Below are positions 21,724-31,198 of a DNA stretch of 64,000 bases, in pieces (the first letter of the stretch is position 1; each line of letters begins with the position of its first letter). The stretch lies in IMG/VR virus record IMGVR_UViG_2880395615_000010. One strand, written 5' to 3'. A program made the translations under genes and the position numbers. Source of the stretch: a virus (taxonomy: Duplodnaviria; Heunggongvirae; Uroviricota; Caudoviricetes). The notes under the pieces were generated by a model, which saw only the letters and a program-made list of their open reading frames with translations, had not been told where the DNA came from and did not search any database.

Positions 21724-21926
21724 AACCTCACTCCCAGCGGACGACGGCGGCGGCTTGTTGTCCCCAGCACTGACTCCGCATCATTGATCGCCCGGTTAAG
21801 ATCATCCAGAGAGGCCGCCGTATATTCAATTCTTCGTCCATCTTTCTGGACAGACACCACCCGTTTACCGGTTAATAAATCAAGGCGCGCCTGACGCAGC
21901 GCCTGCAGTTCAGCGACTGTAACCAT
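21720..21926 (-). CDS. W: Head-tail joining protein W, 68 aa
   Basis: Lambda W-like size and position. Confidence 0.75.
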   Translation of the reverse strand: MVTVAELQALRQARLDLLTGKRVVSVQKDGRRIEYTAASLDDLNRAINDAESVLGTTSRRRRPLGVRL

Positions 21927-23895
21927 TCACTCCTCCGGACAGCTTCGCTGCCAGTTCTTTCAGGGTTGGCCGGGTCGTCTCTTCTTCCCGGGATTTTGCC
22001 AGTACAGCCAGATCAAGCTGCCAGCGTTGCACGGACACACGTAATGCCGCGTAGGCATACACCAGGCAGTCCAGCGCTTCGTTACGCCGCTTTTTGTTAT
22101 CCCACAGCAGACGCATCTTTCCTTTTTCCCACTTCTCCACCAGCTCTTCCGCCACCAGTTGCTGCGCCTCTGTCTGCGAAAAAATCTCCGGATCATCAGG
22201 AAAACGGATGGCATACGACGTGGCTTCATCCGCAGGCGAGGGATCGGCTTTCATACGGGCATAGAGAATTTCTTTTGCGGTGTCCGTTCCCACTTCACAC
22301 AGATACACGCCCCGCTGATTGCGGGTTTTTGGCATGGTGATCACCGGCTTGCCATAGACAGATGCGCCTTTTACCGGCAGCACCCGGAAAACACCGTGTT
22401 TTTTTGATCTCTGATAAACAATTTCACCATCGATCCCCCCGGTGTCCCAGCAGACACGGGAAATAGTCATTTCGGTGCCATCCGCATGGCGGTATTTTTT
22501 GTTGATCGCCGCATCCACACGTAACAGCGTCTCTTCCTCATCAGGACGCCCCATAATGATGATTTTATCCACCAGAAAGGCTTCCTCTCCCGGAGCCCAT
22601 CCCCAGACATACATCTCAAAACGGTTTCGCTGCGAGTCAATGCCCGCCGTCAGATAAACCACCCGGGCAGGCACCGCCGCCGTGTAACGCACCACCTTAT
22701 CCATCAGTACCTGGTGATCGAGTTTTTCGCCCACGGCCTCTTCCCAGGTCTCGCCCAGCGTGGTGTTCACAAAGGTTTTCAGGCCGTTGGGATCTTTCAG
22801 TGCATCCAGCCAGTCATAGACAATCTGTACCCAGGTGGTGAACGGACTGTACGCCGTCCAGATATGGAACGTGATGGAGCGCGGCGGCGGAATTTCATCA
22901 CCCCGGGCGCTGAAAAACGTCAGACCGTCACGGGTCCACATGCCCGTGTTTTCACAGATCCACCGCCCGTTGCTCTGGTCCAGTTCAGACTGATGGATCA
23001 CGCAGCCATGATGTTCACAGAGGTAGAAAACACTTTCAGGGCTGTCCTTCTCCCATTTAAGCCCAAAAGGCGTGGACTCATCGCCAAATTTCAGATACTG
23101 CTCCTCCCCACAGTGCGGGCAGGGCACATAAAAACGCATAAAATGCGCCGACTCGTTAGCGGCTTTTTCGATCTGGCAGGTGCCTTTGATTTTAGGCGTC
23201 GAGCCGCGAATGGATTTTGGCCACACCGACCCCTCAATACGCTTATCCCCCAGCAGGGTTGGCGAGCCCTCTTTTTCGACATCCGGCTCGAACGAGGAAA
23301 GTTCGTCATAGCAGACCACGTCCACGGATTTTTCACGGTAGTTTTTGGCGGCAGCGCCGCCCAGGCACCAGAAACCGACGCCCGATGAAAAGCGTTTCAG
23401 CGTGAGAGTATTGTCACGATGTTTACGCCCCAGCCATGGGGAAAGGTCTTTCAGGCATGGCACGTTCCGAATCGTCGCCTCCACGTGAGACTTCATAAAA
23501 TCTTCAGCGGCAGAATCCGTGGGCTGAAAAAGCAGACTGTTTCGGGATTTATGCTCAATAAAATACCCGACCACCCCCAGCAACATCTTTGTATAGCCAA
23601 CACGGGCAGATTTAATCAGATTAACAGTGCGGATCTGATCATTCCCCATGCTGTTCATGATGGCGATCTGGAATGGCAGCGTTTTCCATTCGCCCTCACC
23701 ATATGAAGATTCTTTAGGCAGATAATAATTTTGATCAGCCCATTCAACTGGCGTCACCGGCAATGCCCTTATCAGGGGCTGTAATGCAGTTGTGACAGCG
23801 CTCATCATATTATTCAGTTGTTGCTCTGATATATTCATCAAGTAAATCCGGTAATTTATCCCCTGCCCGCGCACACTGATTTGCCCCCTTAGCAA
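21910..23895 (-). CDS. A: Terminase large subunit A
   Basis: About 640-660 aa at the lambda A position; true start may be the internal Met near 23838 overlapping the Nu1 3' end. Confidence 0.9.
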   Translation of the reverse strand: MLRGQISVRGQGINYRIYLMNISEQQLNNMMSAVTTALQPLIRALPVTPVEWADQNYYLPKESSYGEGEWKTLPFQIAIMNSMGNDQIRTVNLIKSARVGYTKMLLGVVGYFIEHKSRNSLLFQPTDSAAEDFMKSHVEATIRNVPCLKDLSPWLGRKHRDNTLTLKRFSSGVGFWCLGGAAAKNYREKSVDVVCYDELSSFEPDVEKEGSPTLLGDKRIEGSVWPKSIRGSTPKIKGTCQIEKAANESAHFMRFYVPCPHCGEEQYLKFGDESTPFGLKWEKDSPESVFYLCEHHGCVIHQSELDQSNGRWICENTGMWTRDGLTFFSARGDEIPPPRSITFHIWTAYSPFTTWVQIVYDWLDALKDPNGLKTFVNTTLGETWEEAVGEKLDHQVLMDKVVRYTAAVPARVVYLTAGIDSQRNRFEMYVWGWAPGEEAFLVDKIIIMGRPDEEETLLRVDAAINKKYRHADGTEMTISRVCWDTGGIDGEIVYQRSKKHGVFRVLPVKGASVYGKPVITMPKTRNQRGVYLCEVGTDTAKEILYARMKADPSPADEATSYAIRFPDDPEIFSQTEAQQLVAEELVEKWEKGKMRLLWDNKKRRNEALDCLVYAYAALRVSVQRWQLDLAVLAKSREEETTRPTLKELAAKLSGGVNGYSR

Positions 23896-24319
23896 TAAGG
23901 GTTTTCAGATGGTCAAGATGGCGCGGTGTTAAATCAGGAAACTGTCGCTGCATGGATAAAGGGATGGAATCAAGCGTACTGGATAACGCCATTGCCAGCT
24001 TACTGAGGGCAAAAATACAGAACCCGGTGTCAATCAGTTTTCCTTTTGACACCTCATTTTTTAACTGCTGTGTAACAGCCTGTTCTGCTGTCAGTTCCCA
24101 TCTGGCAATAAGCAATTTCTCTTCATAGTCTTCTTCGCTATCGCCATCAGGCACATCGTTTTTACTTCTTCTCAGATACGATATGTAAAAATCGCGCCAG
24201 GCATCCAGATCCAGTTGCCCTCGCTTATTCGAGACCGGGGCACCCGGTAATTTCTGCAATCTGCGAAGCTGGCGATCGGTCAGACTCAAATGCCTGGCAA
24301 CTTCAGTCTGCGTAGCCAC
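23810..24319 (-). CDS. Nu1: Terminase small subunit Nu1, 169 aa
   Basis: N-terminal HTH, C-terminal region resembling lambda Nu1 (...SMQRQFPDL...LDEYI). Confidence 0.8.
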   Translation of the reverse strand: MATQTEVARHLSLTDRQLRRLQKLPGAPVSNKRGQLDLDAWRDFYISYLRRSKNDVPDGDSEEDYEEKLLIARWELTAEQAVTQQLKNEVSKGKLIDTGFCIFALSKLAMALSSTLDSIPLSMQRQFPDLTPRHLDHLKTLIAKGANQCARAGDKLPDLLDEYIRATTE

Positions 24320-24359
24320 TCCTCACCTCGCAAAAACTCTTACCTCACAATCAGCACAA

Positions 24360-24514
24360 AACCGGTCATGTCCGGTTTACATGTCCGTTTTTTGCACATG
24401 TCCGGTTCACGGACAGCCTGTTTTTATATTTTTCATATAGTTAACTTGCAGAGAAACCGGACATGGATCCCGGAAAATTTTCATAAATAGCGAAAACCCG
24501 CGAGGTCGCCGCCC
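24360..24514. other. cos: cos site: cosN 12-nt cohesive end at 24503-24514 plus CATGTCCG repeats (candidate cosB)
   Basis: Reverse complement of 24461-24514 reads GGGCGGCGACCTCGCGGGTTTTCGCTATTTATGAAAATTTTCCG, matching the lambda left end as I remember it; four CATGTCCG copies at 24367-24466. Confidence 0.8.
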
Positions 24515-24713
24515 CGTAACCTGTCGGATCGCCGGAAAGGACCCGCAAAATGATAATAATTATCATCTACATATCACAACGTGCATCTACGCCATCAAAC
24601 CACGTCAAATAATCAATTATGACGCAGGTATCGTATTAATTGATCTGCGTCAAATTAACGTAAAAGCAACTTCAGATAATACAAATCAGCAACACTGAAT
24701 ATGGGGAAACATT

Positions 24714-24899
24714 ATGTCATCAAAGAACAGAACCCGCAGAACAACAACCCGCAACATCCGATTTCCAAACCAGATGATTGAACAAATTAACATCGCTCTT
24801 GATCTGAAAGGTTCAGGAAACTTTTCAGCGTGGGTTATTGAAGCCTGCAGAAGAAGGCTGTCAACAGAGAGTTCGGGTATGAATTACATAATTAAGTAA
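24714..24899 (+). CDS. Small ribbon-helix-helix-like protein conserved at the lambda right end, 61 aa
   Basis: MSSKNRTRRTTTRNIRFPNQMIEQINIALDLKGSGNFSAWVIEACRRRL; SD GGGGA upstream. Confidence 0.5.
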   Translation: MSSKNRTRRTTTRNIRFPNQMIEQINIALDLKGSGNFSAWVIEACRRRLSTESSGMNYIIK

Positions 24900-30948: not shown

Positions 30949-31025
30949 TGGCGCGTTGTACTGGATTCGAACCAGTGACCGATTGCTTAGAAGGCAATTG
31001 CTCTGTCCGGCTGAGCTAACAACGC
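30949..31025 (-). tRNA. argO: tRNA-Arg (anticodon UCU)
   Basis: Perfect cloverleaf: acceptor gcgttgt/acaacgc, anticodon loop CTTCTAA, T-loop TTCGAAT, encoded CCA. Confidence 0.8.
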
Positions 31026-31038
31026 AGGATACAGATAA

Positions 31039-31116
31039 TGGACCGCCTTCGGGGACCCGAACTCCGCGCAACCAGCTTCGAAAGCTGGCGCTCTTTCCTG
31101 ATGAGCTAATGGCGGT
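31039..31116 (-). tRNA. argN: tRNA-Arg-like (anticodon read as UCG), imperfect stems
   Basis: Perfect anticodon stem ccagc/gctgg with loop TTTCGAA, but one mismatch each in the acceptor and T stems. Confidence 0.5.
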
Positions 31117-31122
31117 ATGTGA

Positions 31123-31198
31123 TGGTGGCCCTTGCTGGATTTGAACCAGCGACCTGGCGATTATGAGTCGCTCGCTCTCACCACTGAGCTAAAGGGCC
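31123..31198 (-). tRNA. ileZ: tRNA-Ile2 (anticodon CAU, ileX/ileZ-like)
   Basis: ggccctttagctcagtggtgagagc...ctCATaa...ggttcaaatccagcaagggccacca, very close to E. coli ileX from memory. Confidence 0.85.

Follow-up and report, generated by a model that had tools for sequence, protein, structure and literature searches.

A probable two-module cos in a lambda-like prophage, with a lambda-type cutting site and a cosB and terminase small subunit domain of their own class

Among the phages related to lambda, differences in cosB and in the recognition helix of the small terminase subunit (TerS) make each phage favour its own DNA in packaging by more than 1000-fold; the cosB of phi80, 21 and Gifsy-1 is arranged as R3-I1-R2-R1 with R2 inverted, and that of N15 is simple (PMC4669245, PMC9026076, PMC4856287). 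The principle is not new, lambda versus phage 21 being the textbook case: in phage 21, a cosQ and a cosN identical to those of lambda are combined with a private cosB and a private TerS binding domain (PMC4669245). N15, with a simple cosB, and Monarch, with a complex cosB, represent one TerS specificity in two architectures (Feiss lab). For the prophages Sp4 and Sp14 of O157:H7 Sakai, a putative cos has been printed on which cosQ, cosN and one site for integration host factor (IHF) are labelled (Asadulghani 2009, PMC2669165). The present study concerns the cos of a lambda-like prophage in a 64,000-nucleotide stretch of DNA, referred to below as the window (IMG/VR record IMGVR_UViG_2880395615_000010, Caudoviricetes). 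The first-pass annotation of this stretch had proposed that a TerS of different DNA-binding specificity is joined here to a lambda-type nicking site, and this proposal fits every computational test run: cosQ, cosN and I2 are lambda-identical, the large terminase subunit (TerL) and the C-terminal half of TerS are lambda-like, the N-terminal part of TerS has no BLASTP match to its lambda counterpart, and repeats at the places of R3, R2 and R1 track the binding-domain clade with fixed geometry. We regard it as probable that window 24359-24544, read on the minus strand, is a two-module cos whose cosB and TerS binding domain form a class of their own.

The prophage reads on the minus strand, and base pairs are numbered from the predicted left cohesive end, bp n corresponding to window position 24515-n. 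The minus-strand letters of window 24514-24470 are GGGCGGCGACCTCGCGGGTTTTCGCTATTTATGAAAATTTTCCGG. The alignment to the lambda and phage 21 cos regions that had been suggested as a check gave identity to lambda over bp 1-45 and no alignment with the cosB of phage 21. The match to the left end of lambda is therefore as described at first, with its length corrected from 44 to 45 nt by blastn and by a position-by-position comparison, in which bp 46 is the first mismatch. The predicted cohesive end is flanked by the conserved CG at both nick positions, and the nick sites at cosN are presumably those of lambda. The I2 segment, between cosN and R3, equals lambda through bp 45 and covers bp 30-35; in lambda, I2 (bp 18-50) is AT-rich and bp 30-35 are essential (PMC4856287). 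The similarity extends past the nick: the right end of lambda and window 24515-24719, cosQ included, are about 93% identical, and the cosQ heptamer and its 30-bp distance have also been labelled for lambda, Sp4 and Sp14 (Asadulghani 2009, Fig. S8, PMC2669165). A YlcI/YnfO-family gene (DUF3950, 61 aa; 24714-24899 on the plus strand, opposite to the prophage reading) stands between the lysis genes and cos and sits within this segment. On the other side, cos is directly followed by the genes for a Nu1-family TerS, whose GTG start is at bp 196 (window 24319), and a gpA-family TerL, which shares 66% identity with lambda gpA across 639 aa.

Beyond bp 45 the site is not lambda-like, as had been noted from the start; identity stops there, and the lambda R core CGTTTCC is absent from bp 46-200. 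There are exactly four copies of the octamer CATGTCCG in the window, three on the plus strand (24367, 24380 and 24397) and one on the minus strand (24458-24465), which agrees with the initial count of three copies on one strand and one inverted. A total of four against 2.7 expected is not above chance for the window, but all four copies lie inside 99 bp: none of 3000 permutation shuffles of the sequence gave three or more copies within 100 bp, and the analytic expectation for such clustering is about 3e-8. When up to one mismatch is allowed, the longer form CATGTCCGGTTT has five matches, every one of them in 24359-24465. The four-copy claim holds for this window and needs refinement for its relatives, in which only three copies are conserved: the middle copy (24380-24387) is CATGTCCG in this window alone, and the five related E. 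coli sequences have CATGTCTG, CATGTCTA or TAGTGTCTA in its place, CCG being replaced by CTG or CTA.

The positions of the boxes follow those of known complex sites. In lambda, the R3 core CGTTTCC is at bp 53-59, I1 at 74-86, the inverted R2 core at 114-120 and the R1 core at 155-161; in phage 21, the R3 core CGTGTCGG is at 53-60, I1 at 74-86, the inverted R2 core at 112-119 and the R1 core at 153-160. In the window, an R3-type box stands in place of the lambda and 21 R3 (bp 50-65), with a core that is kept in relatives of other genera, and it is followed by an IHF-like site that matches in place, strand and quality the I1 of lambda (two mismatches) and that of 21 (one mismatch), and by an inverted R2-type box; by position, this is a complex cosB (Table 1). 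The R2-type box of strain E02 differs by one substitution. Because the boxes lie at the R3-I1-R2-R1 places of lambda and 21, the layout is that of lambda with different boxes. The site thus shares with lambda cosQ, the 12-nt cohesive end, bp 1-45, the R3/I1/R2 coordinates and the inversion of R2, whereas the R core differs (CGTTTCC in lambda, CATGTCCGGTT here) and the third box is direct in lambda and inverted here. The R boxes of this cosB have the consensus CATGTCCGGTT(T/C). The R1-type box lies in a near-palindrome, AAACCGGTCATGTCCGGTTT, also written AAACCGGACATGACCGGTTT, and the minus strand at 24370-24359 (bp 145-156) accordingly reads CATGACCGGTTT in direct orientation; this direct reading arises only from the palindromic form of the site and is not retained in E. 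kobei. In its exact form, the third box is inverted, and not oriented like R3 as is the R1 of lambda.

Table 1. Features of the cos region and the adjacent terminase genes, in the direction in which the prophage reads.
Feature	Sequence	Window position	bp from left end	Strand	Remarks
cosQ heptamer	GGGTCCT	24544-24538		-	pattern match; 30 bp before bp 1; kept in all relatives
cosN, predicted 12-nt cohesive end	GGGCGGCGACCT	24503..24514	1-12	-	12/12 identical to lambda and phage 21
Lambda-identical stretch (cosN and most of I2)		24470..24514	1-45	-	blastn 100% to J02459 1-45
R3-type box	CATGTCCGGTTTC	24453..24465	50-62	-	core TCCGGTT at bp 54-60; invariant in 6 E. coli-type sequences
I1-type, IHF-like site	TTTCATATAGTTA	24431..24443	72-84	+	2 mismatches to WATCAANNNNTTR
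R2-type box, inverted relative to R3	CATGTCCGGTTCA	24397..24409	106-118	+	conserved in 5/6 E. coli-type sequences
Extra degenerate copy	CATGTCCGTTTTT	24380..24392	123-135	+	without CCGG core; not conserved
R1-type box, inverted like R2	CATGTCCGGTTTA	24367-24379	136-148	+	within near-palindrome, region 24359..24379
Small terminase subunit TerS (Nu1 family, 169 aa)		23810..24319		-	GTG start; annotated 'terminase small subunit' in DEC5B
Large terminase subunit TerL (gpA family, 642 aa)		21910..23838		-	Pfam GpA_ATPase and GpA_nuclease

With regard to TerS, the two parts of the protein behave differently in comparisons. Pfam Phage_Nu1 covers residues 61-150 only. By BLASTP, residues 73-164 are 46% identical to lambda Nu1 and residues 64-166 are 40% identical to gp1 of phage 21, whereas residues 1-70 show no similarity to either. 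Residues 1-70 alone nonetheless fall in phrog_57 (E=1.2e-11), a PHROG that also holds lambda Nu1 and 21 gp1, and the phrog_57 match spans the full length of TerS; NCBIfam and PDB sequence searches with the binding domain gave nothing useful. A second family of unknown function, phrog_7289 (91 positions), matches TerS residues 2-90 only (E=1e-59) and was probably built from shortened copies of TerS or copies disrupted by insertion sequences (IS). In a multiple alignment, the N-terminal residues of TerS are in register with the winged helix-turn-helix (wHTH) of lambda. The recognition helix R16-K23 reads RQLRRLQK, as against RTIQNWQE in lambda and RTIERWQS in 21, and the wing is about five residues shorter than that of lambda. 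The helix positions aligned to the specificity residues 20 and 24 of lambda and 21 are occupied by R and K in TerS, by E and S in phage 21 and by Q and E in lambda. The binding domain of 21 gp1 is lambda-like (53% identical over 60 aa), whereas that of the present TerS is not.

An AlphaFold2 model of the binding domain, built on 22 homologues, comprised a helix at residues 4-10, a turn, a helix at 15-22, a wing and a helix at 38-54, with a mean predicted local distance difference test score (pLDDT) of 73 and a predicted template modelling score (pTM) of 0.30. The best Foldseek matches of this model were MerR-type wHTH domains and chain B of 6HN7 (an RppC-lambda TerS(1-98) complex), which aligned over 58 columns with a root-mean-square deviation of 2.5 and a target TM-score of 0.59. 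As all Foldseek E-values were at least 0.56, the fold matches count as consistent support only. Residues 1-55 are a diverged wHTH domain and residues 73-164 the lambda-like TerL-binding and oligomerisation part. Given this combination of a lambda-like C-terminal half and a strongly diverged DNA-binding domain, TerS is a mosaic.

The arrangement of the boxes is kept in relatives. The alignment of six E. coli-type sequences (this window and five others) has a mean column identity of 92% and shows little or no change in R3, the I1-like site, R2 and the last box, and variation in the spacers. Full-length TerS homologues that are 61-80% identical were found in Klebsiella, Salmonella, Citrobacter, Enterobacter and a second E. 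coli lineage, with the same architecture throughout; the sites of Salmonella, Citrobacter and Klebsiella lack the middle copy. We compared eight complex sites from E. coli, Klebsiella, Salmonella (two), Citrobacter and Enterobacter, whose TerS proteins are 61-100% identical. From the R3 core TCCGGTT to the inverted R2 core AACCGGA there are exactly 54 bp in all eight. The IHF consensus lies on the same strand at +18 from the R3 core in seven of them, with zero to two mismatches and a perfect match in three, and the distance from cosQ to R3 is 82-84 bp. The third, inverted box is present in four of the eight, and is carried by L001, L041 and L045.

More distant relatives of the binding domain, 42-67% identical, were found in the phages phiARM81ld, vB_EcoM-705R4 and LPPA33 and at 26 genomic loci in Enterobacter, Escherichia whittamii, Aeromonas, Pseudomonas, Azospirillum, Roseomonas, Microbulbifer and others. 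These bear TTCCGGTTCCGGTT where R3 would lie. Boxes of the type TTCCG[GC]TTCCGGTT are located just upstream of TerS in 22 of them (the three phages and 19 loci; L005, L006, L007 and L013-L031), mostly 15-50 bp before the TerS start and within about 100 bp of it; the phiARM81ld box occupies bp 55-68, counted from the genome end. In the same 22 sequences, the tandem is preceded by a cosQ-like GGGTCCT. In Aeromonas, Pseudomonas and Azospirillum relatives and in E. coli phage 705R4, the simple version of the site is one tandem TTCCGGTTCCGGTT in the R3 place, immediately ahead of TerS, and by its appearance this would be the clade's simple cosB in the style of N15. The complex, IHF-containing version occurs in the enterobacterial members, this window included, and the clade is therefore found with both architectures, like N15 and Monarch. 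Altogether, the boxes co-occur with this TerS binding-domain clade across genera, with fixed geometry.

The box is absent from six loci with an altered recognition helix. At two loci of Pararoseomonas baculiformis with the helix QQAVSAL, TCCGGTT boxes are lacking; one of them (L032) has GGGTTGCGGGTTGCGG repeats upstream of TerS, and the stretch shown for the other (L033) has none. In Acidiphilium rubrum (L037, helix GQSAVAKL), TCCGGTT boxes are likewise lacking and GGGAATTCC-like palindromes lie upstream of TerS. The sites of these three loci may represent other specificities. Helix residue 20 covaries with the base 5' of TCCGG: arginine always goes with G (ATG-TCCGGTT; 5 loci, 13 boxes), and aspartate, asparagine, glutamate, serine or threonine pairs with T (T-TCCGGTT; 25 loci). 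As a recognition rule, this covariation is suggestive.

The same cosB and TerS class is found with different cohesive ends. The lambda end (12/12) occurs in this window, in PhiR12_1 and in Klebsiella, the Gifsy-1 end GGGCGGCAGCGT (12/12) in a Salmonella sequence (L043, Logan SRR30624611) and the N15 end GGGCGGCGTCCG (12/12) in a Citrobacter sequence (L044, Logan SRR8128027). The exchange point lies between I2 and R3, where lambda identity ends in this window, and it is the same in bp 1-75 of L043 and L044, counted from their predicted cos ends, which suggests that recombination has recurred at a boundary near bp 45-50.

From the observed sequence identities, positions, conservation, co-occurrence and gene integrity we infer TerS-box binding, an IHF bend, nicking and specificity, as follows. 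In the first module, comprising cosQ, cosN and I2, the gpA-type TerL would nick and give the 12-nt cohesive ends of lambda. The second module, cosB, would consist of a direct R3, I1, an inverted R2 and an inverted R1, together with one degenerate extra copy. As in lambda, IHF would bend the DNA at I1 and bring R3 and R2 face to face, so that a dimer of the N-terminal wHTH domains of TerS could dock on both, the recognition helix RQLRRLQK reading the TCCGGTT core. The docked TerS would then anchor TerL on cosN, and R1 would be an accessory site. Since the R boxes and the TerS binding domain differ from those of lambda, 21, N15 and Gifsy-1, the prophage would have a packaging specificity of its own, with cohesive ends shared with lambda.

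None of the described specificities was recovered at this locus. Neither the CGTTTCC boxes nor the helix of lambda are present. An identity with phage 21 was considered and rejected: the 21 sequences M81255, OL657228 and X02501 match bp 1-41 or 1-47 only, and because the alignment stops there, the site is not the cosB of 21. Boxes of the form C(A/G)TGTCGG at bp 53-60, 112-119 and 153-160 are not found, and neither is the 21 helix. Phage 21 (L004) itself has an unannotated R-like element, AGTGTCCG, at bp 122-129, between R2 and R1; the middle copy of the window is placed similarly, and both are degenerate. With the N15 sequence standing for both N15 and Monarch, that class was also rejected: an N15-type R3 (bp 48-60) and an N15-type helix are missing, the left end and gp1 of N15 are unrelated in cosB and binding domain, its binding domain (MAVLLNKSDMASSLGISVQAFDKWG...) and R3 region differ in sequence from those described here, and N15 was not among the tblastn matches. 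Gifsy-1 has a lambda-like cos with three R boxes, and the cohesive end of L043 had made this class a candidate. Gifsy-1, however, shares just cosQ, cosN and I2 with L043; it combines the R core CAGATCC with a lambda/21-type TerS binding domain, neither of which is found in the window.

A published match is that of Sp4 and Sp14, which share with the window Nu1 (MATQTEVARHLSLTDRQLRRLQKLPGAP...) and cosQ-cosN-I2 up to ...GGGATCCATGT, as read from the text of Fig. S8 and up to machine-reading noise in the PDF. The printed alignment ends at the first bases of R3, and R boxes or a specificity class are not described there (PMC2669165). The cos itself is thus already published, and the feature is real but expected, as ordinary module swapping in this phage family. 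We found no published description of the R boxes of this class, although a mention in two 2015 Virology papers of the Feiss lab is possible; literature searches with the box motif strings gave only papers on p53 sites and primers, and none was found on the PhiR12 phages. The chances seem to us evenly balanced that the locus belongs to a distinct, uncharacterised packaging-specificity class, apart from lambda, 21, N15/Monarch, Gifsy-1 and probably phi80, with simple (Aeromonas, Pseudomonas, Azospirillum) and IHF-dependent complex (enterobacterial) versions, recombination at I2/R3 with lambda, Gifsy-1 and N15 ends, the residue-20 rule, and a role as a cross-packaging group in enterohaemorrhagic E. 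coli (EHEC).

Several other explanations of the repeats were weighed. If the site had phage 21 packaging specificity, the boxes being variant 21-type R sequences used by a 21-type terminase, this would account for the 7/8 identity of CATGTCCG to the 21 cores CATGTCGG (R1 and inverted R2) or CGTGTCGG (R3), for the common order of R3, I1 and inverted R2, and for the extra GTGTCCG that 21 has between R2 and R1. Nevertheless, blastn gave no similarity to 21 past bp 47, and the core TCCGGTT, conserved in the relatives, is absent from 21. By BLASTP, the TerS binding domain does not resemble 21 gp1, and it carries R and K instead of E and S at residues 20 and 24. The cores are moreover offset by 3 bp relative to cosN (bp 50-57 here, 53-60 in 21), and in lambda a shift of the cosN-R3 spacing by more than 1-2 bp disrupts nicking (PMC4669245). 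We therefore consider 21 specificity improbable. Even less credit can be given to the inverted repeats as terminator-like hairpins, or as operators of a regulator other than TerS such as the product of the YlcI/YnfO-family gene. A consensus scan did return two terminator-like hairpins, over R2 (24399-24415, plus strand) and R3 (24473-24457, minus strand), where 0.5 were expected, and the R1 region is a near-perfect palindrome, but the stems have only 5-6 bp and their partner arms are not conserved. CTGTCCG by R2 becomes CTTTCCA or TCTTCTG in relatives, the partner of the R3 hairpin is absent in the Salmonella and Citrobacter sites, and the third box of E. kobei is not palindromic; the hairpin reading was dropped on account of these arms. 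The boxes also follow the clade of the TerS binding domain, even in phages whose first gene from the genome end is that for TerS. That the repeats are non-functional, through chance or as duplication relics in a decaying prophage, is the most remote of these explanations: the window-wide octamer count and the one clearly unconserved copy would fit it, whereas the confinement of all copies to 99 bp, the conservation of three boxes amid varying spacers, the exact 54-bp spacing in eight of eight sites from six genera and the core at the R3 place in distant TerS relatives do not. Two further candidates were set aside: the direct element CTGTCCG beside R2 (bp 99-105), considered as a fifth box, is variable in relatives, and a plus-strand open reading frame (ORF) over cosB (24290-24490, 66 aa) is treated as spurious because it is unannotated in RefSeq relatives and spans conserved non-coding elements.

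For the two-module cos with its own cosB and TerS class, some points have to be set on the other side of the balance. The case for TerS binding to the boxes is positional and comparative. Structural support is weak (pLDDT 73, pTM 0.30, Foldseek E-values of at least 0.56), and hhalign of shallow profiles gave just E=0.003 with a probability of 10%. The R core is one position off the phage 21 core CATGTCGG, a difference at one of eight positions to CATGTCCG, and some cross-recognition stays formally conceivable. The I1 match is two mismatches off the IHF consensus, though the same is true of lambda's own I1. The third box is oriented like R2 and not like the R1 of lambda and is missing in half of the relatives, for which reasons its R1 role is uncertain. 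Finally, the residue-20 covariation may reflect a single evolutionary event, since the loci with arginine at this position may form one clade.

On the basis of its gene content, it is plausible that this prophage can still be packaged. The ORFs for TerS, TerL, W, portal, protease, D, E, FI, FII, Z, U, V, G, T, H, M, L, K, I and J are uninterrupted at their annotated lengths, and cos is intact. Packaging also needs excision and concatemer formation. The integrase ORF (44633-45658, plus strand, 341 aa) is open and retains the C-terminal H...Y motif region, yet its sequence is that of a copy in E. coli DEC5B that PGAP annotates as a frameshifted tyrosine recombinase. RefSeq places a tRNA-Ser by the integrase in DEC5B, for which ARAGORN made no call. 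A possibility to be taken seriously, albeit one we lean against, is that the cos is functional in type and that the prophage is packaged only with the help of co-resident prophages of the same cos class. The identity of the integrase region to the PGAP-frameshifted copy would agree with this, as would the several late-region genes that are pseudogene fragments in DEC5B and the visible defects of many members of the cos class: in O157:H7 SS17 (L009), TerS is cut by an IS66-family element, matching the published defect of Sp4, and in S19-141 (L010) it has an internal stop, cos being intact in both. The uninterrupted integrase ORF and the full annotated lengths of TerS, TerL and the head and tail ORFs speak for a prophage that is packageable by itself. 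Its relatives are isolated phages (PhiR12_1 to _5) or were found packaged; particles contained DNA of Sp4, which the terminase of Sp14 had presumably packaged (PMC2669165).

Among 5426 complete E. coli genomes, the 191-nt cos (24330-24520) was matched with a coverage of at least 80% in 1163 (about 21%), and at least the cosN/I2 part was matched in 4442. The cos of O157 SS17 is 94.8% identical over the 191 nt, and the isolated phages PhiR12_1 to _5 are 92% identical in cos and 97% identical in the binding domain. The 24 kb of window 12000-36000 are 99.4% identical to a prophage next to mtfA in E. coli O55:H7 DEC5B, in which the cos region 24301-24560 is identical. Three prophage tRNA genes lie at 30949-31198 on the minus strand, upstream of the lysis cassette; these are Arg-tct, Arg-tcg and one with a CAT anticodon, which is called Met by ARAGORN and Ile by RefSeq. 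At the tail-fibre end, the ORFs at window 1-2924 (minus strand) correspond to genes annotated in DEC5B as belonging to the NleG/DUF1076 type III effector family.

Packaging specificity governs which DNA enters which capsid, and genomes of the O157/O55 lineage contain many lambdoid prophages with type III secretion system effector and toxin cargo. If the phage is packaged, cargo of the NleG type would be carried along. A shared cosN together with private cosB/TerS classes decides which defective prophages the terminase of a neighbour can rescue, the presumed packaging of Sp4 by Sp14 being a documented example. The box consensus, its geometry and its distribution make compatibility groups predictable from sequence. 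The class also offers a natural system for the recognition rules of wHTH domains, both through the covariation of residue 20 with the adjacent base and through the comparison of simple with complex sites. If the reading presented here is true, the class would set, in EHEC and related E. coli, which defective prophages and which effector cargo are mobilised by which helpers.

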